Shown piece after piece: positions 607-63,626 of a DNA stretch of 64,000 nucleotides (position 1 is its first letter; each line of letters opens with the position of its first letter). The position numbers were made by a program, and so were the translations under genes. The notes beneath the pieces were generated by a model, which made no database searches, was not told the DNA's origin, and was given only the letters and a program-made list of their open reading frames with translations. The stretch is taken from assembly GCA_000091205.1 (NCBI GenBank), contig AP006500.2, one strand, 5' to 3'. Source of the stretch: Cyanidioschyzon merolae. Its lineage: Eukaryota.

Positions 607-1326
607 ATGGATCAACAGGTCTGTTGCGCACCTTGGTCGAGCACACCGATACGGCCGGAAGCGCACCGAAGAGGACGCAACAGGCGCGACCTTATACTTG
701 GCGCGCTGCCACCGAGGCGTTCACACCCTCAGTGCGCGTTATCCACGAGGCCACGAACGGGTTTGCAACCTCGAGCGCGATCCCTACAAACGAACGGGAT
801 CGCTGAACAATAATGCTGGACGCGCCCCCTCTCGAATTCTTCAAGCGCGCTATCGGGTATCGCGCTTCACCATGAACATTCTTTCAAACTATAAAGTCGA
901 TAAAAAATGGCGGGACGGGTCGCCGACGCGTTTTCGCAATCACCAGCGCCTCGTGCGAGGCTGCAGGCCGCGTTTCGATTTCAGCCCGGCCCCTATCGGT
1001 ACCGTCGCCTTGCAGGGCCTGCCCTGGCATCTCGACAGTAATAGCGACTTGCAGGGGAAGCGCCTCCGACGCCTGCAGAACGGCGGAGTCGGAGCCAGAC
1101 GCGGAAACGTGTCGGCAGTTGTACTGGGAGCTCGAGGCTCAGCTGATTCTCTTACTCTGTTTGTAGGTATTTTGTATTCAGAAACAGGCGCTTTTCAGCG
1201 ACTTGGTTCGAGCGAAAGCCGGGACCCAAGTCGCGGTGTCCCTTTGGCTGGCTTAGGACGGAGTATTGCGCCACTGGGTACTTGACGTACTAGTCGAGTG
1301 ATCCCCGAGAGGCTCGCTGGGCAACC

Positions 1327-2982
1327 ATGGAGCGCGATTTGGTCGGCAGGGGCGCCGCACTTGAATGCAGTTTGCGGCGAGCGCTTCAGAGGCAAATGCC
1401 GGAAGAGCACGTCTTCTTTCTGGCGGAAAGGCTTTGTGCGGAAAAGTCGACTGCGGAGAGCTTTGCGCTTTATGCTCAGGCTCTTGCGCAGTACGGCCGA
1501 CATCGGCAGGCAGTCGACGTTGTGGCGAAGTACTGGCAGCAGGATCTTGAGTGTAGGTACTGGTACGCACTCTGCTGCATTGAGGCTAATGAGTTGGCTG
1601 CCGCCTACAAGGCGCTATCTTTCCTGCTTCAGGAGAACGCGAACGAGAACCTTACCAAGGAGGTTCGCTCGTCCCTTAACAACGCTCGGGGTCTCCCGTC
1701 CGAGAGAAGCCTGTCTGTGCCATGGCAGGCGGAGGGACTATATCTACTAGGGCGTGTGTTTCGCCTCTCGAACACGCGCGTTGACCAGGCTGCTCAGTGT
1801 TTCCGACGAGCGCTTGAAATTGATCCGTTTCTTTGGTGCTGCATCGAGGAGCTCAGCTCCCTCTATCGATATATAGATTATTTCGTACCGGAAATGTTTG
1901 GTATCTCTGGAAAAGAAGAGCAAGTCTTCCAATCAGGACGAAGCTCTCTTCGGCTGGACAACTGCATTTTGCGCTGGAAGACGAGATCCTCGGGCTCGCC
2001 TCAGGATAACTTTCAGGCCTTGGCCACCGTGCGTGCACTCGTTGAAGGATACCATTGCCGAGAGGCGGTCGCTCTAATTGCGACGTTGCCATTGGCGCTT
2101 CAGCAAGCACCCGTGGTGCTCAAATGGCAGGGTCGTGCATATCTTGATGCCGGTGAGCTATCCGAGTGTGCGCGAACGTTTGAAAAGTACCTGAGTTTGA
2201 ACAGATCTGGATCCTTGGATGGCCTCGAATACTACTCGACGGCGCTCTGGCATATGCGGCGGGATGTTGAATTAAATGCACTGGCCCGGTATGCACTTGA
2301 ACGAGACCGCTTCTCTGCAGCAACCTGGTGCATTGTGGGTAATGCGTTCAGTTTGCAACGAGACACAGACAGCGCTATCGAGTTCTTCCTCCGTGCCGCC
2401 CAGATTGATCCGCGAAATCCGTACCCCTGTACGCTAGCGGGTCATGAGTATCTTTATTTGGACAATTACGATGCCGCTATGAGATGTTACCAGGACGCGC
2501 TCTACAGGAACAGTCGACATTATAATGCCTGGTTCGGCATCGGACAAGTCTATCAACGGCAAGAGAAATTCCGTCTAGCGGAAAAACACTATCGAATAGC
2601 CCTCGATTTGAACTCGAATAATTCCATGTTGTGGTATTATCTGGGCCATGTTATCCGCGTCGGCGGAGGCCGCGAGGTCGATGCACTGAACGCTCTGGAG
2701 AAGGCTTTGGAAATGAACCCTCGCAATCCGGTGGCGCGTTTCGAGTGCTGCAAACTATATATGCAGATAGGCCGCTTACAGGATGCCTGGAAAGAGCTGT
2801 ACCAGCTCCGGAATATGGTGCCCCGTGAAGCAGCTATCTACTACCAGATGGGTGTCATCGCTCGCGAACTGGGTCTTAAGAATGCCGTAGAGCTGTTTAG
2901 CATCGCTCTCGATCTGGATCCGAAACAACCGCTATATAGGCAGGCGCTCTTATCGCTAGACGAGACGCAAAGTGCGCCGTAG
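1327..2982 (+). CDS. CDC27: Anaphase-promoting complex subunit CDC27/APC3 (TPR repeat protein)
   Basis: 551-aa ORF with ATG start; C-terminal TPR block AWFGIGQVYQRQEKFRLAEKHYRIALDLNSNNSMLWYYLGHV...NPRNPVARFECCKLYMQIGRLQDAWKEL...VPREAAIYYQMGVI matches the conserved CDC27 C-terminal TPR array (AWYGLGMIYYKQEKFSLAEMHF...). Confidence 0.8.
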   Translation: MERDLVGRGAALECSLRRALQRQMPEEHVFFLAERLCAEKSTAESFALYAQALAQYGRHRQAVDVVAKYWQQDLECRYWYALCCIEANELAAAYKALSFLLQENANENLTKEVRSSLNNARGLPSERSLSVPWQAEGLYLLGRVFRLSNTRVDQAAQCFRRALEIDPFLWCCIEELSSLYRYIDYFVPEMFGISGKEEQVFQSGRSSLRLDNCILRWKTRSSGSPQDNFQALATVRALVEGYHCREAVALIATLPLALQQAPVVLKWQGRAYLDAGELSECARTFEKYLSLNRSGSLDGLEYYSTALWHMRRDVELNALARYALERDRFSAATWCIVGNAFSLQRDTDSAIEFFLRAAQIDPRNPYPCTLAGHEYLYLDNYDAAMRCYQDALYRNSRHYNAWFGIGQVYQRQEKFRLAEKHYRIALDLNSNNSMLWYYLGHVIRVGGGREVDALNALEKALEMNPRNPVARFECCKLYMQIGRLQDAWKELYQLRNMVPREAAIYYQMGVIARELGLKNAVELFSIALDLDPKQPLYRQALLSLDETQSAP

Positions 2983-4075
2983 TGGCCAACAGCGCCCGCG
3001 GTATATATGCGAACGAAACGGCGAATAGAGACCCTACAGGCTGTCGTACGAGTAAGTCGCCAGCTGTCCATGCGGTAAGCGCCAGTTGACACCTCGGGGC
3101 TATTTCGATTCCGCACCCGCAGACATTGATCCGTCTGTATTGGACCGGATGTCAAACCGGTAGCATGGGAGCTAGGATTTTCGATACGGACGCGACGGCA
3201 ATCGCATGTTAGTCTGAGCGTTGCTCCGCTTGTGCGAGCTCTCGAGACAGACTCGGATACGAGAGCTGGTACCCGTCTGCGATGGACCCGCTTGGACTGC
3301 TACCTTGCACCGGCGCTCGCGGGAGATAGGAAACTAGAATCCTATCTTTCTGTCAAAACCTTCCTGGAATTCCCTTGGGGTGCTTGATTCTATTCAGCGT
3401 TCTTCAGTCTGGAACTGGCGGGTGCCAAAGTGTTGCTGTTATTCTGATAGTTTCACTCATGCAGCAAAGGCGAAGGCCCTCTCGAAGACGCAGCAATGCT
3501 CCGCGCTTGCCGTCTGGGCGCTGATCTCTCCCCCCTCCATTCTAGACAATTACCGATGCTCTTGGGATTCGCTCTGGCCATCGCTTCTCGCGGGGCCAGC
3601 TCAGGGCTTGAACGACAGCGCGGCCTCAGCAAGTTGGGTTATTCTCGTGAAGGCAAGTCGGTTGATTGCATGCTGCACGCGCTACTATTCCGTACGGCAG
3701 AACGAGCGTTCTAAACCAGCGCCTACGGGTCGCCTTTCGAACGCTGCAATTCCTCTCTGGTGACCTGACAGGAGGGCTCACCCAAGATCTCGCTTGCTCG
3801 TAGGGCTCTCAGGGCCGCGCCACTGAATACTGACGCAGCCCACTCCTGCAAACTTTGACGATACAGAACCTGCGGCCTTTGAGGCTTATGAAGCGTGCCC
3901 CGTGGGGCACGCATTCTGCATTTGCGTCGTGACTCCACAGCAGGGCAGCCGCCAATGCAAACAGCCCGTAACCATCGGGCTCGCGTGTGCGGCCTGTTAC
4001 CGCACGGTTAGCCTGTCACCAGGAGGCAAAAACACTTGTCAGGCTCAAAAGATGCATTGCAATCTTCATTTTGTT

Positions 4076-5452
4076 CCCGCCTTTCGATCGTTTCCCGAAT
4101 GTTCGCTAGAAACACAGCTGCAATATTCAAAGTGCAGCAATAACGGCGAATGGATTCATGGGTAGTTCTATGCCCCTCGGTTGTACTATCCGTAGGGATC
4201 CCGTCGACTCCCTGCCGCTGGCATTCGATACGTCACCGGGATCAAGATGGTTCGTGACGCCCTCATACGCGGGTTCGTAACATAGCCGATATCATCATCT
4301 CATTCAGTCGCACGCGCCTGCACTCTTCTGTTTTCCTCAAGTATAGCATGCTTGAATCATGCATTCTTCAAGTTTTCGATATTTCTCCTTAAAGGCAACT
4401 CGAGGGCGCAGCAATGCGTACAGCTGGGTGGACAGCGAAAAGAATCGCAACGACTTCACTTGAAGACTTTGTCACATGCTCATATCGAAGGCTGACTACA
4501 ATTGTCAGGTCAGCTAATCGCATCCGTCCGAGAAGGAAATCCGCCCGTCCTTGAGACAAGCGGCAACGTGGCGTTCACAGCCGGCGAGATAACGCTCACG
4601 GCATACGTCCCCAGAGGCTTCGCTCGCTTCCGTACACACCGAAGAAAATCGGAGACTCAGACCTGAGTTATCGCAGCGACCGCGCCAGATAGAGAGTCTG
4701 GCACCGCCTTGCACGGAGGAAGCGTAGACGGATCGAAGTTTTCTAGAATTGCGCTCCAGCCTGCATTTTTGCCTCGCGGTACATGGTTCACCACGAAAAG
4801 CTTCCCGTTCCACGAATCCTCCATCGAATGCGACACTGTGCACTGGCTTGCGCTGGCTTGCACTGGCTTGCGCTGGCATTGCCCCGCACTGCCTCGAGCC
4901 GACGCCCTCTGTGTGGTACGGCAACGCCGTTCTGCCTCCGTGCAGCGACCGCACTGGCGCTATAGGCGTCATTGCTGTCGCTTTCGGCAGGCACTAGGCA
5001 CACACGATAGGACGTATGAAACGACTAGAATATCCGGGAAGTAGTGTGGGTCATGGAACTTGGAGGCAGGGCGTTCGATGGCTACTTCACCGCACACAAA
5101 CAAAAAGAAAACAAAAAGTGCACAATCGGAGAACGCTGGCCTAAGTAAGCATTTTGTCAGTGAGAAAAATCCGACACTGTGTTCGCTGAGGGCATTGCGC
5201 TGATGCAACCTGCCAGCGAAGCGCACGGCAGCGAGCCCGCAAACTGAGAAGAGCATCGTGGTAAGCCTTCGATACTCGTCAATTGCATGGAACGAGCGAA
5301 AACGCGAGCTGTACGACGCCTCAAAACGGCCCTCCGAGGAAGAGGAGCAGGAGCAGGAGAGGCTTTGGTGGATATACGGGAACACCTGACCACAGCCAAA
5401 AGTCATCGATGCGAGGACGCACAGAGGCTGTATACAATGAAGATGAAAATGG
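4076..5452. repeat. Direct repeat copy R1 (1377 bp), >99% identical to 14734-16110
   Basis: Identical ORF translations (4514-4972 = 15172-15630; 4969-5406 vs 15627-16064, 1 aa difference) and direct sequence comparison; boundaries where identity stops (left ...ctttcgatcgtttcccg; right ...gaaaatggcaagcgaa). Contains the microrepeat cactggcttgcgctggcttgcactggcttgcgctggc (4845-4881). Confidence 0.85.
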
Positions 5453-14733: not shown

Positions 14734-16110
14734 ATTTTCTTTCGATCGTTTCCCGAATGTTCGCTAGAAACACAGCTGCAATATTCAAAGTGCAGCAATA
14801 ACGGCGAATGGATTCATGGGTAGTTCTATGCCCCTCGGTTGTACTATCCGTGGGGATCCCGTCGACTCCCTGCCGCTGGCATTCGATACGTCACCGGGAT
14901 CAAGATGGTTCGTGACGCCCTCATACGCGGGTTCGTAACATAGCCGATATCATCATCTCATTCAGTCGCACGCGCCTGCACTCTTCTGTTTTCCTCAAGT
15001 ATAGCATGCTTGAATCATGCATTCTTCAAGTTTTCGATATTTCTCCTTAAAGGCAACTCGAGGGCGCAGCAATGCGTACAGCTGGGTGGACAGCGAAAAG
15101 AATCGCAACGACTTCACTTGAAGACTTTGTCACATGCTCATATCGAAGGCTGACTACAATTGTCAGGTCAGCTAATCGCATCCGTCCGAGAAGGAAATCC
15201 GCCCGTCCTTGAGACAAGCGGCAACGTGGCGTTCACAGCCGGCGAGATAACGCTCACGGCATACGTCCCCAGAGGCTTCGCTCGCTTCCGTACACACCGA
15301 AGAAAATCGGAGACTCAGACCTGAGTTATCGCAGCGACCGCGCCAGATAGAGAGTCTGGCACCGCCTTGCACGGAGGAAGCGTAGACGGATCGAAGTTTT
15401 CTAGAATTGCGCTCCAGCCTGCATTTTTGCCTCGCGGTACATGGTTCACCACGAAAAGCTTCCCGTTCCACGAATCCTCCATCGAATGCGACACTGTGCA
15501 CTGGCTTGCGCTGGCTTGCACTGGCTTGCGCTGGCATTGCCCCGCACTGCCTCGAGCCGACGCCCTCTGTGTGGTACGGCAACGCCGTTCTGCCTCCGTG
15601 CAGCGACCGCACTGGCGCTATAGGCGTCATTGCTGTCGCTTTCGGCAGGCACTAGGCACACACGATAGGACGTATGAAACGACTAGAATATCCGGGAAGT
15701 AGTGTGGGTCATGGAACTTGGAGGCAGGGCGTTCGATGGCTACTTCACCGCACACAAACAAAAAGAAAACAAAAAGTGCACAATCGGAGAACGCTGGCCT
15801 AAGTAAGCATTTTGTCAGTGAGAAAAATCCGACACTGTGTTCGCTGAGGGCATTGCGCTGATGCAACCTGCCAGCGAAGCGCACGGCAGCGAGCCCGCAA
15901 ACTGAGAAGAGCATCGTGGTAAGCCTTCGATACTCGTCAATTGCCTGGAACGAGCGAAAACGCGAGCTGTACGACGCCTCAAAACGGCCCTCCGAGGAAG
16001 AGGAGCAGGAGCAGGAGAGGCTTTGGTGGATATACGGGAACACCTGACCACAGCCAAAAGTCATCGATGCGAGGACGCACAGAGGCTGTATACAATGAAG
16101 ATGAAAATGG
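14734..16110. repeat. Direct repeat copy R2 (1377 bp), >99% identical to 4076-5452
   Basis: See R1; a few single-base differences (e.g. 4183 a vs 14841 g; 5284 a vs 15942 c). Confidence 0.85.
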
Positions 16111-21590: not shown

Positions 21591-22400
21591 TCCAGGAAGC
21601 GCTGACTCAACTGGCCCATAATTTAGGTGCTCAAGGACGCGAAAACGTTTCGCTACCATAGAGTGTACATATATGTCTACTTGCAGACAACTCCCGGACT
21701 GTTTCGACAGGACTCCTGCTATCCTCTTCAGCTTCTCATCGTATACTTCGAGCCCGAGAGGCTGCTCCATAAAGTTAGATAGCCACAGCCCTGCGGGTCT
21801 TGTCTTCAGTACCGCACATTGTCGGATTTTTATGGCGATGTTGAAGTCTCTGTTCACGAACTCTATGCGTTCGTTCTCGCTGGTGGAATTCACTGATACA
21901 AAGAGTCCTCGGACTCGTGCCCTGTATGGCGCCAAAGTCTCGTCATCGTTCCATCGGGCAAACGCCTTTTCTCGACGATCTCCTCATTTCTTCTTCGTCC
22001 ATTGTTCTTCTTCTTCGCTCGAGAGTCAACGAGAAGAGGATTTTTTGTTGTTTTTCCTGCACCCGGCGATGCCGACCCCCCTAGGATTCCCGACTTGCAT
22101 GTCCATACTTTCCCCTGGTTTTTTTATCACTTCAAACGAAAGCACTTTGCATGCGTCCGCGGTAAGCAGCGAAAAAGCATTTGATGACATGCACCTGAAT
22201 GCGGAACACTTTTCAGGGCAAAGACTGCGATGCGATAGCGATCAGCAGCGCGCGGCGCACCGCCGAGGCGTTACGCATTGCGGAATCGCGCACGCACGTA
22301 CGCATGCACGCATCGTATGGCGGCTTCCCGCCAGGCGATCTCGCTGATCCGTGCATGCCACGCGGACGGCACAGCCGTTATCGCCACATGCAACTGGCAT
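21588..22400 (-). pseudogene. Decayed Fanzor-like (TnpB/OrfB homolog) gene remnant, C-terminal RuvC-III region retained
   Basis: ORF 21588-21935 (minus) RARVRGLFVSVNSTSENERIEFVNRDFNIAIKIRQCAVLKTRP...LEVYDEKLKRIAGV..SGSCLQVDIYVHSMV aligns with the intact copy RAKVRGLLAIVSTTRNGKKRMEFVNRDFNAAINVRRCAVLETRP...VELDEKKLEAVVG..AGRCLHVSWRHLL; nucleotide homology to 59988-60165 visible; upstream continuation has frameshifts and stops (e.g. ..MER then shifted RARVRG; GRMQSAF stop vs GGKQRAFANF). Confidence 0.55.
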
Positions 22401-49378: not shown

Positions 49379-50407
49379 TCACTGGGGCCTGACAGTCGCT
49401 CGTGGCGACTCAACAGCGCATCGGTTCACTGTGGCGGGGCCACCGTCGCTTCGCAGCGCGACCTGCACTTGCCGGTAGGCTTCCCAGAGGGCAATGGCGG
49501 CGCTGGTCGATAGATTGTACGATCTGATACCGGCATCACCGGGACACACCATTGGAATCGCAATCGTCCGCTCCCGAGGAATATCCTCGGGCGGAATGCG
49601 TTCGAAACCATCTAGCTCGTTCCCAAATATTAGCGTGATCTTCGTTGCAAGAACCTCACTTCCTTTCTTTGATGAGACAAGGTCCGCGTCCAGCAACGAG
49701 CTCTGTGCGAACTTGGTGAAGTAAAAAACGTTACCCAACTGGGGCAAACCCTCGTCGCGAAAGGCCTGCCAACTCGACCATACACGCAGATCAACGAAAG
49801 GCCAATAGTCAAGGCCAGCCCGTTTCAGGTGGCGATCACTCAGAGAAAAACCCAGCGGTTCAATGATATGAAGCCGTGCTTGAAAACCTACTGTAGTTCT
49901 GGCGGTATTCCCGGTATTCCAGTGAATAGAGGGTGCGTAGAAAACAACGTTCAGTAGGGGCTCGCCTGTGCCCGTGTGACGCAGTGGCGCGCTCACAACG
50001 CCTGGGCCATAGCTCGCGCGTACGCACTTGCTTCTCGAGATGCACTGTCGAGATGCTCTACTGACGCCTGCGAAACAGGGCAGTTCTGGTGACCACTCGG
50101 TAACAAAAACGAACTCGAGTGCGCGCATAAGCGCCTGGCGTCGGTACCAGGTTCCTGTGTCCATACAGAGCGCGCAATATGAGGAATACTGGGGTGTTCG
50201 CCCTGCGGCGAGTGCATTTCTTTGTGGTTCTTTGAGAGCACGTTTCCTCGAACAGGGAATCGTCATCATTGCTGACTTGATACCAGCAATGGGAGAGCGT
50301 GCATGTATCCACGCCTTTCCTCCAACTTCTGAGACCCATATTCCCCGTCGCAGGTAGTGGTCATTTCGTGCGTTCCGCAGTGCGCCGAGTCTGCCATGAG
50401 CGTCCAC
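49379..50407 (-). CDS. SpoU/TrmH-family RNA 2'-O-methyltransferase, TrmL-like (tRNA wobble-position methyltransferase), with about 150-aa N-terminal extension (possible organellar targeting)
   Basis: C-terminal 170 aa LNVVFYAPSIHWNTGNTARTTVGFQARLHIIEPLGFSLSDRHLKRAGLDYW...RTIAIPMVCPGDAGIRSYNLSTSAAIALWEAYRQ is colinear with bacterial TrmL ([73 protein letters not shown]). Confidence 0.7.
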   Translation of the reverse strand: MDAHGRLGALRNARNDHYLRRGIWVSEVGGKAWIHARSPIAGIKSAMMTIPCSRKRALKEPQRNALAAGRTPQYSSYCALCMDTGTWYRRQALMRALEFVFVTEWSPELPCFAGVSRASRQCISRSKCVRASYGPGVVSAPLRHTGTGEPLLNVVFYAPSIHWNTGNTARTTVGFQARLHIIEPLGFSLSDRHLKRAGLDYWPFVDLRVWSSWQAFRDEGLPQLGNVFYFTKFAQSSLLDADLVSSKKGSEVLATKITLIFGNELDGFERIPPEDIPRERTIAIPMVCPGDAGIRSYNLSTSAAIALWEAYRQVQVALRSDGGPATVNRCAVESPRATVRPQ

Positions 50408-57294: not shown

Positions 57295-59979
57295 TCAAAC
57301 GGATGCTTGGTTATCTGTCTCGTCCCAGAGCGGTACACGCAACACCGGCTCTATCAAAACAACCCAGGGCTGTAGCCCCGACTGCTCTTTGATGATATCG
57401 CTGGCAGGCCGCTCCGCTCGCAGATCATCACCCCAGGATGCAACCAGCAGCACATCGATCCACACAAAAGGCATGGTGAGCACATATCGAAGCGACTGGG
57501 AGAACGCCTCCACTCGCTCTGGTTCAGCCGTTGACCAGCTCATGTTCGTCCCAGTGCAGAGCGTTGTCAGATCCTCGTCAAGTACCCAAGCCGAAATCAC
57601 CGTCGGCGCAGAAGCGATTATTTTCCGATTTTCGAAACGCAGGTCGTCATTTAGAAACGGCTGATTTTCCACCGCTTCTTTCGATCCACTCGGGCACTGG
57701 AATGGCAGATCTGTCAAAAGCAGCTGCAGCATGTGCCGCGAGTCAGCGTCAACGATCCAGTGCACGTCGCAGACGCAGGCGTACACGCGGTAGAGCCGAT
57801 GCATTGGAGTGTCGGCGCGCGCGCACGCATTACCCGCTGCACGCATCGAGCGCAGTGCACGCATGTCATCCAACATATGCGCAAGCGACTGAGGGCGTAG
57901 CGCTTGCCAGGGTATGCTCATCGTTGAACTTGTCTGTAGCAGCGGTGGACCACTACAATGCAGGCAGCTGGGGTGCTGTACAGGACCCCGTTTGACAATT
58001 CCTGTCTCTGCGGACTCGATATTAGTCGTTGTATGGGAGGTGGTGGTGTAGGCAACGCGTTCGCGATTCAGTTCGGTGCACGGGGCGCTGAGTATGGGAT
58101 AGGCAGCAGCGCTCATTTGTTCCGGTGTATTTCGGGTGCCAAGCGCACGCTGGTGAGCAACGGGCGCTGCTTCGTATGCGCTTTGCGAATCGGTCCGACA
58201 CGTGGGATCAGTCAATGCTGCTCCCAAGTGCTGCATGCGACTTTGCACCTCGGGCATCCATTGCGGGAACTTGTAAATCGATGAACCCTCATTCATGGTC
58301 AGGCGCAAAGGCAGACCCGGGCGTCGATCGAGGCGTACATCGCGAAGCCGGAACCAGTTACCGCGAAGGTGCGGCTCCAGTCGATGTGTGAGCCGCGTCC
58401 AGCACTCTGCGGCAATGGAGACCGTCACCAAATCGGAGATGCTTCCGTCGGTGACTTTGAGCAGGAATTCGTACGGGGTTTTCTCCAAGTCCCGAATGAG
58501 CACCACCAGATCGTATCGTAGCCGTTGCATGGCGCTGCCGTTTGCTGAGTCGACCACAAGCGAACTTTGCAGAATGTCTCGCAGGGTGGCGGAGAACGCC
58601 TTCGAGCCGAGAAAGCCGCTTTGCGACAGGAGTGCACGCGCCCAACGTAGCAACTCCATGGCGTAACATTTTTCACTATTGGTGATCACGATCGATTTCG
58701 TGTTTGACGGGTAAGCATATATGAGCGGATCGGGTAAATGATTCATTTCTTCGAGATGAGTGGCGGTCGCGGCTCGCAGACCGGACAAGTCTCCGGAAGC
58801 GGAAGCCGACGAGCGTCCCAAACCAGCTCCCTCATCATGCTGAGCAAGTGCAGGCCAGAGGCACATAGAAGAGAGCGAATTTGTCTTCAGCTCCAACGTC
58901 TCCGTCTTCGAACCACTCGGACTCTGTTGGGGAAACCACCGCAGCTCGGCGCGATGTACCCGGACGACGTCTCCTACCCCGATGTACGGAACGCAATCGC
59001 TAAGACGGCTACTGAACGAGGTAAGCATGAATTGGGGAGGTGCGAAGCTCACCAGCCGCCCATCAGAGTCTGTTACGACGATGCTTGGATCGATGATCTG
59101 CAGCTCAGTGAGCAGTTCTCCGGTACGTACCAGGCGAGGCGCCCGGACGTCGACGATCACCCCGTAAACGTCATACGTGCGACCGGACATCTGGCCGGGG
59201 TGTCGCAACTGCTCAAGCGTTAAGTAGTGATGTTTTGAGTCCAGGGGCACTACAGGCCTCGGAACTGGTTCGCAACTTTCGTGCTGTGCGACGGGGCGTC
59301 CACTGGTGTCCGTCCCTGCACCATGCTCTGTGACGACCAGAGTTTGCCCTATAGACTCCGGAGACAGCTTCATGATACGTGCGTTTGCAAGTTGGGATAG
59401 ATCGTTGCACTTGCCGGCGTCTTTGAATATGGTGAGCGCGGGTTTGCAGGCTGTTGCGTCTGCGGCACCAGCACAGCAGGCCTCTCGCTGGTCAGGACCC
59501 AGTACCACCGCGTACTCGTGTAGTTCCAGACACGAGTCCAACAGTCCATGGTCCCTGGCCTCACAAATGTCGCCCAGCGGTACGACCTGTGCGTTCTGAA
59601 CCTCCACAACGTCCCAGTGTGCTAGGGCGGTGCCCGCGGCCGTCCAGTCGCCGGTGCAAACAAGCACAACCACGGTCTGCTGTGGAGCAGGAACACTCGG
59701 CCAGGGCTCAAGTAAAGCAAGGATCGCTCTACCTGAACGATTTTCAACTAATGTTCGAAGGACTCGCCCTCGTAGACGAAATGGATGCTCAGCGTTGCAG
59801 GTGTAGGGCTTGAGGCTCCGAAACTGCACGAGACGCAGTTCCATAGATTCCGTCGCACCAACAACGCCGTTCGAAAGTCGAACGACGCCAACGGTGTACA
59901 GTAGTGGCGGGAAAACCGTCTTAGAGAAGATGTCTCCAACTGACGTGCAGACACCTCCCCGCCTTTTTGGACCGGCCAC
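57295..59979 (-). CDS. POT1-like telomere end-binding protein (OB-fold); annotated start overlaps Fanzor stop, true start may be internal Met (MELRLVQF..., about 59844)
   Basis: HYLTLEQLRHPGQMSGRTYDVYGVIVDVRAPRL...LQIIDPS...GDVVRVHRAELRWF is colinear with POT1 OB1 (YTYLPLNQL...VNVYGVVKFF...IVDQT...GDIVRFHRLKIQ); an additional OB-like segment lies N-terminal. Confidence 0.5.
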   Translation of the reverse strand: MAGPKRRGGVCTSVGDIFSKTVFPPLLYTVGVVRLSNGVVGATESMELRLVQFRSLKPYTCNAEHPFRLRGRVLRTLVENRSGRAILALLEPWPSVPAPQQTVVVLVCTGDWTAAGTALAHWDVVEVQNAQVVPLGDICEARDHGLLDSCLELHEYAVVLGPDQREACCAGAADATACKPALTIFKDAGKCNDLSQLANARIMKLSPESIGQTLVVTEHGAGTDTSGRPVAQHESCEPVPRPVVPLDSKHHYLTLEQLRHPGQMSGRTYDVYGVIVDVRAPRLVRTGELLTELQIIDPSIVVTDSDGRLVSFAPPQFMLTSFSSRLSDCVPYIGVGDVVRVHRAELRWFPQQSPSGSKTETLELKTNSLSSMCLWPALAQHDEGAGLGRSSASASGDLSGLRAATATHLEEMNHLPDPLIYAYPSNTKSIVITNSEKCYAMELLRWARALLSQSGFLGSKAFSATLRDILQSSLVVDSANGSAMQRLRYDLVVLIRDLEKTPYEFLLKVTDGSISDLVTVSIAAECWTRLTHRLEPHLRGNWFRLRDVRLDRRPGLPLRLTMNEGSSIYKFPQWMPEVQSRMQHLGAALTDPTCRTDSQSAYEAAPVAHQRALGTRNTPEQMSAAAYPILSAPCTELNRERVAYTTTSHTTTNIESAETGIVKRGPVQHPSCLHCSGPPLLQTSSTMSIPWQALRPQSLAHMLDDMRALRSMRAAGNACARADTPMHRLYRVYACVCDVHWIVDADSRHMLQLLLTDLPFQCPSGSKEAVENQPFLNDDLRFENRKIIASAPTVISAWVLDEDLTTLCTGTNMSWSTAEPERVEAFSQSLRYVLTMPFVWIDVLLVASWGDDLRAERPASDIIKEQSGLQPWVVLIEPVLRVPLWDETDNQASV

Positions 59980-61297
59980 CCACTACTGCTTCCAACTTTT
60001 TCTCATCTAGTTCGACTTTGATAGGTTGTCCAATAAAGTTCTCTCTTGTCAGCTCTGGAGGTCTCGTCTCCAGGACCGCACATCTCCGTACATTGATAGC
60101 GGCATTAAAGTCTCGGTTCACAAACTCCATACGTTTCTTCCCGTTGCGAGTTGTACTCACTATTGCGAGTAGCCCTCGAACTTTCGCCCTCCTTTCCATT
60201 TGCTCCTCCGTCAGCGGTCCGTACTTTGCTATTTCCTCAGGGCTCCTCTGGCACTTTTCTATCTCCACGCTCTGAAGTGTACAACCCAGTTCGTGGTATA
60301 TATACGATGTTCGGAACTCATCTACAGGTATCGTAACAAAACGCCTTGCGCACTGTTTGTGCACCCTCGTCGTTGGAGCTGGAGTAGTGCCTTTCTTGGG
60401 CGCCCAGCGCCCTGCCCCATACGCTACTACGAGCCTTTGACTTTCATCCTCCTTCAAGGCGCTCAACTGATTGAAAAAGTTGGCAAACGCCCGCTGCTTC
60501 CCACCGTATAGATTCATTCGCAAACGAGCCCACCGGGGCTTCGTATACTCCTCCCACAGCGCATCCCAATGCGCCATGCGAACTTCCATGAATTTCCGAA
60601 AAGCTTCAAATTTCGCGCTTCGGCTAGTCACCTTGCTCAAAGCTTCCAGGTGATCCTTCATCCCTGAATTCCAAGTCTCGATTTTCTTCCTTGCATTCAT
60701 GATTCCCGATTCTCGATAGTATCTCGCTCTCGAGAACGTCAAGAGACGCATGTCTTTCTGACGTAAGTTGCCGTCAGTACAATCTTCCGCCCGCTTCGGT
60801 GCTGCGATGGTGATGATATTTGAGTTTCCGGTGTCCGCGCCAACGACAAAGTCGTTATCTTGCACTTTCTGCTTCTCAGAACCGGGCTTCTTGTTTTCTT
60901 CATGGTTCGTCGCGTCAACGACAAAGTCGTTATCCTGCACCTCCTGCACCAGAGGATCCGCTTCCTTCCCATCTTCATCCTTCGTCACGTCAACGACAAG
61001 GTCGTTATCCTCCACCTCCTGCATCGCAGGTTCTGCCTCCTTCTCATCTTCATCGTTCGTCACGTCAACGACAAAGTCGTTCTCTTGCACCTCCTGTGTC
61101 GCAGGATCCGCCTCCTTCTCATATTCATCCTTCGCCACGTCAACGACAAACTCGTTATCCTCCACCTCCTGCATCACAGGATCCTCCTCTTTGTTTTCTC
61201 CATCCTTCGCGACGAGCGCAGCCGAGGGCGGAACTGGCCGACCTTCCTTCAACCGCCGATAGTGTACACACAAGGGTACTCCATCGGTTTCGATCAA
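59921..61297 (-). CDS. Fanzor-like protein, C-terminal segment (acidic tandem repeats, RuvC-II, Zn-finger-like, RuvC-III)
   Basis: See the mobile_element entry; the ORF-track start at 61297 is TTG, and the reading frame is open a further 30 codons upstream. Confidence 0.75.
   Translation of the reverse strand: MIETDGVPLCVHYRRLKEGRPVPPSAALVAKDGENKEEDPVMQEVEDNEFVVDVAKDEYEKEADPATQEVQENDFVVDVTNDEDEKEAEPAMQEVEDNDLVVDVTKDEDGKEADPLVQEVQDNDFVVDATNHEENKKPGSEKQKVQDNDFVVGADTGNSNIITIAAPKRAEDCTDGNLRQKDMRLLTFSRARYYRESGIMNARKKIETWNSGMKDHLEALSKVTSRSAKFEAFRKFMEVRMAHWDALWEEYTKPRWARLRMNLYGGKQRAFANFFNQLSALKEDESQRLVVAYGAGRWAPKKGTTPAPTTRVHKQCARRFVTIPVDEFRTSYIYHELGCTLQSVEIEKCQRSPEEIAKYGPLTEEQMERRAKVRGLLAIVSTTRNGKKRMEFVNRDFNAAINVRRCAVLETRPPELTRENFIGQPIKVELDEKKLEAVVGGRSKKAGRCLHVSWRHLL
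60841..61215. repeat. 5 x 75-bp in-frame tandem repeat (minisatellite) inside the Fanzor-like ORF, encoding acidic 25-aa units (EVQDNDFVVDVTKDEDEKEADPxxQ)
   Basis: Unit starts caacgacaa(a/g)gtcgtt at 60841, 60916, 60991, 61066, 61141 (period exactly 75); protein shows DNEFVVDVAKDEYEKEADPATQEVQENDFVVDVTNDEDEKEAEPAMQEVEDNDLVVDVTKDEDGKEADPLVQEVQDNDFVVDATNHEENK. Confidence 0.85.
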
Positions 61298-61677
61298 CCC
61301 AGTAAATACCTTTTTTTGCTGACTTTTAGACGTTTGAAATCGAAGATACTCTTCCAGTACGTCTCCCGGTGTTCGCCGGAGAACTCCTCCCTGCTAACAT
61401 CGAACTCCGGACAGATCTCCCTCATGATGCCGTAAAGGACGCCGGAGTCGATAGTTACAAAATGTGACTTGACTTTCCACATTGGAACCACGTTGAAGCG
61501 CTTCCCCATTAGGAAATTCTTCCGTCTCTCCCACTGTTCATTTGTCTCTTCACTCAGCTTCACCTCCGCTTTGCGTGCGAGCTCTCGGTCCAAAAACACG
61601 AAATAGCGCAGGATGAGGCGGTAGTATCTTTCCTTATCTTTTTTCAACGGTGATATCTTGTCTGTTGGATTCACCAA
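61294..61677 (-). CDS. Fanzor-like protein, middle segment containing RuvC-I (VTIDSGV)
   Basis: Frame joins the C-terminal segment if the A7 run at about 61313-61319 (plus strand T7) is A8; ORF-track start is TTG/GTG. Confidence 0.65.
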
Positions 61678-62423
61678 CCCAGTGCCGCACGGTGCTCTTG
61701 TATAGCCGCACGGATCACAGAAGCTTCATTCGTGCTCCTGCGTGATGTCTTCATATCGACAAATTCGATCTCATCTTCATACTTTCGATCGTTCGTGATG
61801 CCGTTGATCATCGCCCATATTCCTTTGCGAGAGATGCCCGGGTAGAGTGCAAACACGGCGCGTTTCATGAAACGTTCGAGGTTCTCTGTCAAATGCTTCT
61901 TCAGGTTCGTAATGTACTTCATTACCCCGTATGTGTAAATATTTCCGTCACCCTTGTATCGGGTACGCTCGAAGCGGTATTCGGCGTAGTTTTCGTGGAG
62001 AGCGTGCACTAGCACATTTTCCTTCCGCGCTTCCCCTGTACCAAGCATCAGGTGACGAATAAAGGTCTTGTGGAAAAACTCGTCTGGAATCTCGACCGTT
62101 TCCATGTGCGTCACGTCGCGATACATCTCCCTCGCCAAATGCATCAGCCCTGAAGACGCCTTGACAATACTCTTGGAGTGCGAGTCGACACGTTTTTCGA
62201 TAGCGTCTCGCAACTTTTCCCTGTAGGGATCCTTGATATGTCCAAGAAGGAAGGCTTTCACCACCATCTCGTCGTACAGTCGTCTTTCTTGCCGCCTTCG
62301 ACGTAGGGCGTCCACCTTTCGATTCTCCTTCACTTCCTTTTCTTCTGGACTCGGCACTGTATTTGTTTTTTTTCTGGCAGCCGGCGACACTGGGCCTCCA
62401 GGATCGTGGACTTGCTTTTTCAT
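61671..62423 (-). CDS. Fanzor-like protein, N-terminal segment
   Basis: 250-aa ORF with ATG start (MKKQVHDPGG...), basic N-terminus (KKTNTVP..RRRRQERR, NLS-like); frame shifts by one relative to the middle segment within 61673-61720. Confidence 0.6.
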   Translation of the reverse strand: MKKQVHDPGGPVSPAARKKTNTVPSPEEKEVKENRKVDALRRRRQERRLYDEMVVKAFLLGHIKDPYREKLRDAIEKRVDSHSKSIVKASSGLMHLAREMYRDVTHMETVEIPDEFFHKTFIRHLMLGTGEARKENVLVHALHENYAEYRFERTRYKGDGNIYTYGVMKYITNLKKHLTENLERFMKRAVFALYPGISRKGIWAMINGITNDRKYEDEIEFVDMKTSRRSTNEASVIRAAIQEHRAALGW

Positions 62424-63626
62424 AGCTTTCCTTTTTTAGTTTTTTTGAGAAAGAACGCTCTTTGAACCCTTCTGTTATATACTGCGAAAAATTAATCGAA
62501 TATTTTTACTTGAGGTTTGAAGCACAATCGAACTGAAAGACTGTACGTTGCTATGACCTGAACGAAAATACAACGTTTACAATAGATCTACATGCTAGAG
62601 ATCAGGATCACGTTCCCCTTCAAAAACGGCATGTGCGTCGTGTCTCATGCCTGCCTGATCTCCGAGGTGCGCTCACTGAGCGCGATGCAAACTAGTCACA
62701 AACTATTTATCAAAGAACAACTATCTTTAAGCCCAACACACCACGCCCGCATAAGAGGTCTAGTTTTTCCGGAGAAGCTCTGAAAGTGGGCGAACGCGGG
62801 GTGCTTGGGCGACGGCGAAGGAAGCCCACGACAGGGACGTTGACCGCAACGAACAGAGGGGCGCAGACAGTGGCAGCAGAAAATATTGACGAGGGTTCTG
62901 AGCAGTCATCCGCTGCTCTCGAAACAACGCTGCAGGCTCCGGCGCAAATCCTGGATTCATTCTTGAACTCGGGCTCAGGATTACCTCCTACATTGGTTTC
63001 TACCTCAACTCTGGAAACAGTCTCGGCGGATACTTTGGAAGACGGCTGGCAGTATGTTCGCGGTCGAAGCTGGAATAAGCGACTTATCCGCCTATGTGTT
63101 TGGGGAGCGGATACGAAGCCGCTGAAAGGGTAGTTCGTAGAGTATCCGCTGTGGTTGCGGGTAGCTTCACGCGTCCGGCAAGATAAAGGTCGCATTCGAA
63201 TCGACCTTGACTAATGTACTTCTGATTTTACGCTAGCACTGCGGCAAGCACTCAGTGAACGACTGGAATGCAGGAGGCAATGGTGGCGTGTGCGTTCTCA
63301 CACCCTGGGGAGGGTGCATCTAAATCGACGACGTATCTCTGGAGTACCGCAGCGTTACTCCTATTCCCTTATGCGCTACGACTCGATAGGTTTCGCATCA
63401 TGGAATATTTGTGGGATAGCCTCGATACTAGACGACGAGATATCGAATTACCAGTACAGTAATGAAGAACTGATACAAGTCGTTGACTGTACAATGGGTA
63501 AAGAGACCCAACCAGATACGGAGAAGGAGACACAGAAACCTCATGATCCACCTAGATGCAAAATATCCAGAGAAAGCAGCTCAGGAAAGAGCCCGAAGAA
63601 GAAGAAGACCAGCAAGAAAAAATAGA

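Follow-up and report, generated by a model that had tools for sequence, protein, structure and literature searches.

The question raised by this locus is whether a 75-bp tandem repeat, lying in frame within a transposon-encoded nuclease gene of Cyanidioschyzon merolae, contributes to the encoded protein or is merely carried by it. The stretch of DNA analyzed, 64,000 nucleotides in length, is referred to as the window, and an earlier reading of its letters is referred to as the preliminary description.

Structure of the repeat array

Tandem Repeats Finder reported an array at 60841–61209 with a period of 75, 4.9 copies, 81% matches, 0% indels and a score of 451, while no second tandem array scoring above 81 was found in the window. 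In a repeat search the spacing between copies was 75, 75 and 75. The units run head to tail and in frame with a period divisible by three, as in coding minisatellites, and were placed as follows.

60833..61207, minus strand: repeat array, five in-frame 75-bp units of 25 amino acids (Tandem Repeats Finder and unit table with translations)
61207–61133, minus strand: unit 1, in protein register
61132–61058, minus strand: unit 2, in protein register
61057–60983, minus strand: unit 3, in protein register
60982–60908, minus strand: unit 4, in protein register
60907–60833, minus strand: unit 5, in protein register

On the minus strand the unit reads K-D-E-x-x-K-E-A-D-P-x-x-Q-E-V-x-D-N-D-F-V-V-D-V-T, a rotation of the motif given in the preliminary description, whose period, frame and number of units were confirmed by Tandem Repeats Finder and the unit table. 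The 85–90% identity between units given there was too high: pairwise nucleotide identity was 80–87% within units 1–4 and 69–72% against unit 5. Asp and Glu account for 36% of the 125 residues of the array, for a net charge of −34. L003 and L004, orthologous metagenome loci that were assembled independently, have the same five-unit array, and it is therefore not an assembly artefact. Orthologous loci in JGI metagenomes were 99% identical. An inverted repeat (60785–60803 and 61215–61233, 74% complementary), which is short, weak and imperfect, brackets the array, and the three plus-strand frames across the array are likewise all open because a stop-poor composition is repeated five times.

The transposon copy

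59865..62688, minus strand: transposon copy of the CMe-1A family, Fanzor part only, about 2.8 kb
59865..59975, minus strand: conserved 3′ terminal stretch (conservation in 20 copies), comprising the final ORF codons up to the stop at 59921, then about 56 nt of non-coding sequence; it includes a GGCG…CGCC stem and a GTTCGACTTTCGAAC hairpin

The element belongs to the already published family CMe-1 Fanzor1/CMe-1A of C. merolae (Bao and Jurka, 2013, Mobile DNA 4:12; PMC3627910), and the array is a minor curiosity of that family, not a new nuclease feature. Positions 660–3169 of the CMe-1A consensus aligned to 62672–59865 with 86–88% DNA identity; homology to the near-intact paralogue L001 began at 62688 and to a second locus, L002, at 62661. 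After repair of the reading frame, the window protein (834 amino acids) was collinear end to end with published CMe-1 (734 amino acids) in BLASTP, with 593 of the 734 aligned positions identical and exactly 100 gap positions, that is, four extra units relative to CMe-1. The published traits of CMe-1A, which are a length of about 3 kb, no terminal inverted repeats and many copies about 80% alike and mostly decayed (PMC3627910), were matched; when the two ends of the window element were inspected, no inverted pair joining them was found.

The window copy differs from the consensus in three respects. It is frameshifted; it has five units, compared with one 25-amino acid unit in the consensus (PMC3627910) and one to six in relatives; and it is without the 5′ TE-N2_CMe module (635 bp, or roughly 640 bp), since the alignment begins only at position 660 of the consensus and no significant match was detected upstream of the window copy. 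The copy is either truncated or a member of a subfamily without this module. TE-N2_CMe-like fragments are present separately elsewhere in the window, the genes of which are intron-poor and about 55% GC. No mention of the repeat was found in Bao and Jurka (2013; PMC3627910) or in literature searches on tandem repeats or disorder in Fanzors.

In Fanzor elements, it is the 3′ end that encodes the guide RNA. The conserved 3′ terminal stretch of about 110 nt, with its two hairpin-like motifs, is a candidate omega-RNA scaffold; RNAalifold, applied to the conserved 3′ end of 16 copies, predicted only 4 pairs, without covariation.

A Fanzor1 pseudogene

61671..62423, minus strand: ORF piece A, N-terminal REC part, start MKKQVHDPGGP
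61294..61677, minus strand: ORF piece B, middle of the protein, in a frame different from those of pieces A and C, collinear with homologues
59921..61297, minus strand: ORF piece C, 458 amino acids, containing the WED end, the array, RuvC and TNB, and including E327 (60319–60317) and D396 (60112–60110)
61678..61680, minus strand: frameshift 1, a G3 run in place of the G4 of the family consensus (CTTGGGGCTGG), common to L003 and L004
61311..61317, minus strand: frameshift 2, an A7 run; orthologous L004 has a frame-restoring A8, L003 also has A7

The gene that carries the array encodes a Fanzor1. Nothing relevant was returned from the PDB by a single-sequence search or by a shallow family profile. 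No usable Pfam match was obtained for the repaired protein, its three ORF pieces or P0001 (the protein of L001), and the precomputed match of the homologues was no more than a weak DUF8286. The deep profile of alignment A4 matched PpFz1 (9cf0, E = 6e-18) and GtFz1 (9cer, E = 6.5e-6) in the PDB. For the model of window ORF piece C, the first fold matches were SpuFz1, PpFz1 and GtFz1 (E = 8e-10 to 3e-7); the P0001 model (pTM 0.74) matched SpuFz1 with E = 8e-16 and a target-normalised TM of 0.73, and its top seven matches were all Fanzor1. The bilobed REC/WED and RuvC/TNB fold is borne out by these matches. The assignment of the ORF to the Fanzor/TnpB type in the preliminary description therefore holds, on the profile match to solved Fanzor1 and on the fold matches.

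The catalytic triad corresponds to D155, E327 and D396 of ORF piece C, of which the first two are invariant and the third nearly so, and the spacings are 172 and 69 residues (158 and 65 for D383, E541 and D606 of SpuFz1). In Fanzor1 the Asp lies on the first RuvC strands, the Glu on the loop after strand 5 and the Asp or Asn on the following helix (PMC11423790), and the placement of the three residues in the model fits this description. The window protein thus shares its fold, its triad and the triad spacing with SpuFz1, PpFz1 and GtFz1 (Xu et al., 2024, PMC11423790; PDB 8GKH, 9CER-9CF3), and like them has a WED-to-RuvC loop after the 'ETDG' hairpin.

The window locus itself is a pseudogene with an interrupted reading frame. 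Compared with all homologues it is missing one nucleotide at each of two places; one of these deletions is polymorphic (A8 in L004), and L003 has additional indels. Introns were considered as the source of the two frame switches, as a 17-nt GT…AG interval fits junction 1 arithmetically, and were ruled out because every homologue reads through with one extra base and because the A7 run of the window is A8 in L004. Since the gene is dead, the array does nothing at this locus and is an inert relic there.

Position of the array in the protein

60833..60835, minus strand: codon of the RuvC-I catalytic Asp, D155 of the 458-amino acid ORF (motif FVVGAD-TG), the last codon of unit 5
61226..61309, minus strand: WED end (beta-hairpin) and conserved start of the WED-RuvC loop (KEGRPVPP)

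The array precedes RuvC-I in the protein, occupying the linker that joins the last WED beta-hairpin to the motif FVVGAD(155)TG, and unit 5 carries RuvC strand beta1 and the catalytic Asp. D155 is an invariant column in alignment A4, closes the strand at residues 149–155 in the model and was aligned to 'DPGR' of PpFz1. Units 1–4 are best regarded as the extra copies and unit 5, running into RuvC-I, as the ancestral one, because unit 5 is the unit joined to RuvC-I; the BLASTP gap, which leaves one unit's worth of residues aligned, is placed mid-array.

The preliminary description had located the repeat between RuvC-I and RuvC-II, probably by mistaking the invariant WED motif 'ETDG' for RuvC-I, and had thus proposed an insertion within the RuvC fold. 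Lineage-specific insertions within RuvC are known in Fanzor1: the FRI domain is likewise an addition of about 100 residues, lying within RuvC, folded (three helices, three strands and a long loop) and cyclophilin-binding. The array, in contrast, is repetitive, predicted to be disordered and free of detectable constraint. It also lies wholly upstream of RuvC-I, because invariant D155 is its last codon; in the model, strand beta1 starts at residue 149, after the disordered stretch, and no folded domain is predicted. An insertion domain inside RuvC is refuted on these grounds.

On the other side of the array, the WED-end strands (residues 351–358 and 362–370 of the P0001 model) had a pLDDT of about 90, K17, R20, P21 and V22 are near-invariant, and the WED end has the lowest diversity in the gene. 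DNA-unwinding wedge residues have been described for solved Fanzor1, in which a conserved WED-RuvC loop stacks on the last TAM base pair (PMC11423790). R20 (61240–61238) is the presumed counterpart of the wedge residue, and the array begins about 10 residues past the conserved loop that corresponds to the TAM-stacking one. The distance from wedge to catalytic Asp, 38 residues in SpuFz1 (Y345 to D383; PMC11423790), would be 135 residues here because of the four extra disordered acidic units.

Extra sequence at this site is nothing exceptional, contrary to the earlier suggestion, since the WED-RuvC linker is length-variable in the wider family: it measures 43 amino acids (median) in 72 distant relatives, 54 in the one-unit form and 154 here, and the same position is occupied by an acidic low-complexity insert in P0078, an unrelated relative. 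AlphaFold gave the array, which adjoins a confident RuvC core, a pLDDT of about 30–45. In the model of window ORF piece C, pLDDT was mostly below 50 over residues 27–140, with only two short predicted helices; in the model of the four-unit protein P0001, it was about 30 over residues 376–471. The array is accordingly predicted to be disordered and almost without secondary structure, in agreement with the preliminary description of an acidic, disordered repeat, and it is presumably solvent-exposed.

Copy-number variation

Copy number, proposed earlier as a property to be checked, varied from one to six units among 74 loci counted at the DNA level (5, 14, 21, 18, 10 and 6 loci with 1, 2, 3, 4, 5 and 6 units, respectively) and over the same range among 30 distinct linkers. 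Three or more units were present in 55 loci, and the length offset from the consensus was an exact multiple of 75 bp in 54 of the 74. L012 and L035, which are the same locus (flanks 99.1–99.3% identical), have 5 and 3 units, as read from metagenome assemblies that are probably short-read and able to collapse near-identical units. L019 and L021 differ by one converted unit. Five units were counted in each of the three versions of the window locus, and the near-intact paralogue L001 has 4.

Unit by unit, 71 of 107 were closest to the same-position unit in another locus, so that arrays were mostly inherited through transposition. The repeat is specific to this lineage, as had been anticipated; one-unit forms and distant relatives are without the array. 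It had also been proposed to be a recently expanded passenger. The expansion is not recent at the window locus, where units are 13–31% diverged and most are closest to same-position units in other copies; the status of passenger is favored by the evidence on constraint that follows.

Selective constraint and possible roles of the array

Constraint was read from pairwise position-matched dN/dS and from codon-position diversity. In the same 22 pairs, which are non-independent, mostly dead copies and picked for equal unit number, dN/dS was 1.12 in the array, compared with 0.24 for the RuvC core. Diversity at codon positions 1 and 2, expressed as a ratio to that at position 3, was about 1 in the array and about 0.4 in the core, and comparison of the window units with each other gave pN = pS = 0.216. 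Replacements at acidic positions were 21% acidic, 55% neutral and 24% basic, where random mutation would give 27%, 59% and 14%, and the acidic residues have thus not been kept preferentially. Consensus-based pN/pS values per unit, with ratios of about 3, were discarded, as they mix two ancestral unit types and non-independent units.

Synonymous divergence was 0.14 in the array and 0.30 in the core. Constraint at the DNA level was rejected as the cause, since third-position diversity in the array (0.17–0.19 in 20 copies) is in the normal range of the gene; the choice of pairs with equal unit number also introduces a bias toward recent shared ancestry there. The possibility that the repeat acts as DNA or RNA, as an internal regulatory element, part of a guide RNA or a recombination hotspot, with its coding content incidental, was weighed against these values. 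The open plus-strand frames and the bracketing inverted repeat speak for it, the former having its explanation in base composition and the latter being imperfect. Nucleotide diversity in the array is at least that of the neighboring coding sequence at all codon positions, and the conserved non-coding region of the element is the 3′ end, where guide RNAs are encoded. A role of this kind is very improbable.

A role at the protein level was considered as well. The array may be a functional, length-tunable tether near the wedge and the positively charged cleft, acting either by mimicking nucleic acid, and so auto-inhibiting or proofreading DNA binding, or, through acidic-plus-aromatic motifs (E-D-N-D-F), by engaging histones for work on chromatin. 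A net charge of −34 over 125 residues, beginning just past the conserved 'RRLKxxRPVPP' loop, could plausibly affect DNA engagement; arrays of at least three units predominate and were transmitted by transposition; near-intact L001 has four units; and the acidic insert of P0078 occupies the same site. Moreover, bulk composition or length of disordered regions can be selected without a codon-level signal. Set against this, dN/dS in the array is close to 1 and diversity shows no excess at third positions, next to a constrained core, charge is not preserved and acidic-to-basic changes are if anything over-represented, unit number ranges from one to six with no preferred value, one-unit forms and distant relatives without the array exist, and neither contact nor structure is predicted by the models. 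Such a tether is, on balance, unlikely, and the specific proposal that in intact CMe-1 Fanzor1 the variable acidic array at the WED-RuvC junction, by the DNA-wedge residue, modulates DNA engagement as a nucleic-acid-mimicking or histone-engaging tether of tunable length is somewhat less likely still.

Origin of the array

The best explanation, to which we assign a probability of roughly 0.8, is that the array is a minisatellite that arose through slippage or unequal exchange and was tolerated in a disordered linker of variable length in what is now a decayed CMe-1A copy, and that it is apparently neutral. In the ancestral protein, a single 25-amino acid segment would have bridged the last beta-hairpin of WED and the first strand of RuvC. 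A tandem duplication of this 75-bp segment, followed by slippage or unequal exchange (presumed from the pattern of units), would have given arrays of one to six units. Whole-unit changes stay in frame because 75 is a multiple of three, and extra units would have been tolerated during spread of the element because they are sited in a solvent-exposed, disordered interdomain linker. The extra units would since have drifted, with no detectable selection on sequence or charge. The array is presumably without function in intact copies as well. Against neutrality, most copies have at least three units and arrays were mostly passed on by transposition; an expanded array was therefore at least no bar to spread, and selection for length could yield the same result.

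Coding minisatellites (VNTRs) in disordered linkers typically have units that are multiples of three, change by whole units, encode charged low-complexity sequence and are under relaxed constraint. The present array shares all of these properties. It differs in that its host is a transposon-encoded RNA-guided nuclease and in that the first residues of a strand of the catalytic domain form part of the duplicated unit.

Implications

For annotation of these proteins, the WED motif 'ETDG' is not to be taken for RuvC-I, and the published one-unit consensus hides a length polymorphism of one to six units. An acidic tether that modulated DNA engagement would be the more interesting outcome, a built-in regulator unseen in TnpB, Cas12 and solved Fanzors; the evolutionary signal argues against it. 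What the arrays indicate is that the Fanzor1 WED-to-RuvC linker tolerated at least 100–125 extra disordered residues during spread of the element, a tolerance that may be useful for siting tags or fusions in Fanzor engineering.

Extent and composition of the array

Tandem Repeats Finder delimited an array at 60841-61209 (period 75, 4.9 copies, 81% matches, no indels, score 451), and the spacing between copies in an independent repeat search was exactly 75, 75 and 75 nt. As the next-best tandem arrays across the 64-kb window score 81, it is the sole substantial one. Its coding strand is the minus strand, on which the units are:

Unit 1, 61207-61133, minus strand, KDGENKEEDPVMQEVEDNEFVVDVA
Unit 2, 61132-61058, minus strand, KDEYEKEADPATQEVQENDFVVDVT
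Unit 3, 61057-60983, minus strand, NDEDEKEAEPAMQEVEDNDLVVDVT
Unit 4, 60982-60908, minus strand, KDEDGKEADPLVQEVQDNDFVVDAT
Unit 5, 60907-60833, minus strand, NHEENKKPGSEKQKVQDNDFVVGAD

The same five units were recovered on two metagenome contigs of independent assembly, which follow the window collinearly for 6 kb (~99% identity), and together with both repeat searches these confirm the in-frame array of five 75-bp units in the preliminary description. DNA identity was 80-87% among units 1-4 and 69-72% between unit 5 and the others, below the 85-90% previously given. The 125 residues are acidic, as described (36% Asp/Glu, net charge -34). All three plus-strand frames are open across the array (60768-61435; ORFs of 164, 161 and 191 aa) because a stop-poor unit is repeated five times; no coding evidence was found for these frames, by which gene callers could be misled.

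Identity and fold of the host protein

Pfam searches and single-sequence PDB searches with the window protein were negative. An exhaustive profile search returned 1408 relatives, typically of 600-700 aa, and a profile of the window ORF (59921-61297, minus strand, 458 aa) plus 24 diverse relatives matched the Fanzor1 nucleases of Parasitella (E = 6e-18) and Guillardia (E = 6.5e-6) in the PDB. In the AlphaFold model of the ORF, the RuvC core had pLDDT ~90, and the top seven Foldseek matches were SpuFz, PpFz and GtFz, followed by Cas12 proteins and Fanzor2. The model of P0001, a near-intact four-unit paralogue (pTM 0.74), matched SpuFz1 over its full length (E = 8e-16, target-normalised TM 0.73). 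Two residues are invariant, D155 (FVVGAD-TG) and E327 (VDEFRTS), the latter in the loop that follows strand five; a third, D396 (NRDFNAAIN), where a helix begins, is almost so. They fit the catalytic triad that Xu et al. 2024 (PMC11423790) describe for Fanzor1, with spacings of 172 and 69 residues here and 158 and 65 in SpuFz1. Profile matches, fold matches and triad thus bear out the assignment of the host as a Fanzor.

Position of the array in the protein

Upstream, the array adjoins a conserved loop and, before it, the final beta-hairpin of WED, whose strands are at 351-358 and 362-370 of the P0001 model (pLDDT ~90); downstream it is bordered by the RuvC-I motif. Unit 5 closes with the codon for the catalytic Asp (60835-60833), and each upstream unit finishes with a degenerate version (…DNDFVVD-V/A) of the first residues of strand beta1. 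The array is thus N-terminal of RuvC-I and not, as first proposed, between RuvC-I and RuvC-II. This position also refutes an FRI-like intra-RuvC domain.

The hairpin, linker and 'DPGR' aligned one-to-one with PpFz1 in a profile alignment. In solved Fanzor1 nucleases, a residue of the WED-RuvC loop stacks against the final base pair of the TAM, namely F392 in GtFz1, Y345 in SpuFz1 and R448 in PpFz1 (Xu et al. 2024, PMC11423790); the near-invariant R20 (61240-61238) is, by position, the likely counterpart of this wedge residue. The distance from wedge to catalytic Asp is 38 residues in SpuFz1, ~35 in the published one-unit protein CMe-1 and ~135 in the window copy. A stretch of 25 codons at ~61226-61300 is the least diverse part of the gene whichever codon position is considered (0.114 at positions 1+2 and 0.092 at position 3 in 20 copies, third positions being equally conserved); the WED hairpin and wedge loop may be strongly constrained there, or a signal at the nucleotide level may be present.

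In line with the preliminary description, both models predict a disordered array: in that of the ORF, residues 27-140 mostly had pLDDT <50, and in that of P0001, residues 376-471 had ~30. Apart from a pair of short helices modelled at low confidence in the ORF, the array had no secondary structure. Among 72 distant relatives the median TDG-to-DPG distance was 43 aa (35-58 aa in 66 of them); this linker is 54 aa in the one-unit family form and 154 aa in the window form. Independent long inserts occupy the same site in a few of the distant lineages (P0113, P0078 and P0126), and by this comparison the WED-RuvC linker seems to be a recurrent insertion hotspot. P0078 has a 76-aa linker, mostly an acidic low-complexity insert, and P0113 a 145-aa linker with two Lys-rich segments alike in sequence. 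One alignment member gave a weak Pfam SAP match (E = 0.002).

Copy number and inheritance

A metagenome scan yielded 381 relatives, and for 74 loci the unit number was determined from the DNA sequence between conserved anchors. One, two, three, four, five and six units were present in 5, 14, 21, 18, 10 and 6 loci, respectively. Copy number thus varies among loci, and the array is lineage-specific, as supposed. Length offsets from the consensus were exact 75-bp multiples in 54 loci, 12 carried an extra 12-bp deletion and 7 were frameshifted. In metagenome assemblies, probably short-read, L012 and L035 represent one locus (flanks 99.1-99.3% identical) with 5 versus 3 units, the extra units being near-identical to one another, and L019 and L021 represent another, in which one unit was overwritten by its neighbour.

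The closest match was the same-position unit of another locus for 71 of 107 units and lay within the same array for only 9, so arrays are mostly inherited through transposition; occasional recent gains, losses and conversions of units appear to be superimposed. The earlier suggestion of recent expansion does not hold for the window array, which these matches indicate to be old.

Selection on the array

An alternative is that the array is a functional acidic tether beside the DNA-unwinding wedge, a nucleic-acid mimic or histone-engaging element, as its location and charge and the predominance of arrays with three or more units would allow; the evolutionary signal does not support this, and we consider it improbable. 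When copies having the same number of units were compared in 22 pairs, the array had a dN/dS of 1.12 and the 200 RuvC codons after it one of 0.24. An alignment of 20 copies gave diversities of 0.14-0.20 (codon positions 1+2) and 0.17-0.19 (position 3) for the array, and of 0.07-0.13 and 0.17-0.35, respectively, for the RuvC core. Between units of the window array, pN = pS = 0.216. Replacements at consensus acidic positions were 21% acidic, 55% neutral and 24% basic, versus 27%, 59% and 14% expected from random single mutations, so acidity is not under protection. A role of the array at the DNA or RNA level is also unlikely.

Relation to the CMe-1A family

The preliminary description missed that the host gene belongs to a published transposon family, CMe-1A, with ~150 copies in Cyanidioschyzon merolae that are ~80% identical to a ~3-kb consensus, lack TIRs and in some cases are still intact (Bao & Jurka 2013, PMC3627910). 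The frame-repaired window protein (834 aa) and the CMe-1 protein in the supplement of that study (734 aa) could be aligned over their entire lengths; 593 positions are identical, and the gaps, which total exactly 100 positions, all fall within the array. Consensus positions 660-2196 correspond to window 62672-61135 (85.8% DNA identity) and 2122-3169 to 60909-59865 (87.6%). The consensus has a single unit (…PPSASPVAKHEEKKEADPATQEVQENDFVVGADPGNTN…), whereas the window copy has five; the 5′ TE-N2_CMe module of the consensus is missing from the window copy. No terminal inverted repeats were found in the window copy, as in CMe-1A. From the match to this family the host is probably C. merolae or a close relative, with which the intron-poor window genes (~55% GC) are consistent.

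Related fragments occur elsewhere in the window. A short CMe-1-like piece at 21679-21923 (minus strand) is 50% identical in protein to ORF residues 370-452 (RuvC-III region) and 69% identical in DNA to consensus 2841-3088; it looks like an older, truncated insertion. Near-identical stretches at 4892-5070 and 15550-15728 match consensus 84-256, in the TE-N2_CMe module, at 76.5%, each adjoined by a 2.1-copy 20-bp tandem repeat (TGCACTGGCTTGCGCTGGCAT; 4839-4882 and 15497-15540). From this match they are probably two copies, ~10.7 kb apart, of a TE-N2_CMe-like non-autonomous element, with a third, weaker fragment at 50319-50401.

Decay of the host gene

The Fanzor protein is encoded by three successive ORF pieces that differ in frame:

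62423-61671, minus strand, ORF piece
61677-61294, minus strand, ORF piece
61297-59921, minus strand, ORF piece

Both junctions are uninterrupted in 18 close homologues (junction 1 reads …AVLGLVNPTEK…), so the window gene carries two 1-nt deletions:

61680-61678, minus strand, deletion 1, G3 run versus G4 in the family
61317-61311, minus strand, deletion 2, A7 run

Deletion 1 is common to the window and the orthologous loci L003 and L004. At deletion 2, L004 has A8 and L003 has A7, with two further indels in L003. Introns were rejected as the cause of the frame switches, since homologues are contiguous at the junctions and L004 has A8. The locus, whose two deletions had been overlooked, is a pseudogene decaying in the population. 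None of 30 distinct loci had a fully intact ORF, the best being L001, the four-unit locus encoding P0001, open for 819 codons. L003 and the window differ at ~35 positions in ~560 nt of the element's 5′ part (62493-61929) and at <1% elsewhere, which suggests gene conversion from a paralogous copy.

The last ~110 nt of the element (59865-59975) are strongly conserved, likewise in 19 related loci. Within them lie a GGCG-loop-CGCC stem, whose loop varies in sequence, and, at the terminus, the hairpin GTTCGACTTTCGAAC, which shows paired changes in some copies (GTTCTACTTTAGAAC). The ~110-nt stretch is a candidate guide-RNA scaffold; RNAalifold did not support a consensus structure for this 3′ end. 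Only ~20 nt separate the transposon end (59865) from the likely ATG (59844, MELRLVQ…) of the neighbouring gene downstream, which has the same orientation and is POT1/CDC13-like (Pfam POT1, E = 1.3e-5, below the Pfam cutoff of 29 bits), and the long ORF call for that gene (57295-59979) extends into the transposon end.

Origin of the array

The array is probably a passenger, an option already raised and now the favoured reading, to which we assign a probability of about 80%. The segment that connects WED and RuvC would first have undergone a tandem duplication of 75 bp and then expanded and contracted through slippage or unequal exchange, whole-unit changes being automatically in frame because 75 is a multiple of 3. 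The disorder and variable length of the linker at this site would explain why the array was tolerated, and it would have drifted neutrally since; at the window locus it now lies in a dead gene. What is new here is a previously undescribed length-variable linker in a known Fanzor1 family, and the novelty is limited to that.
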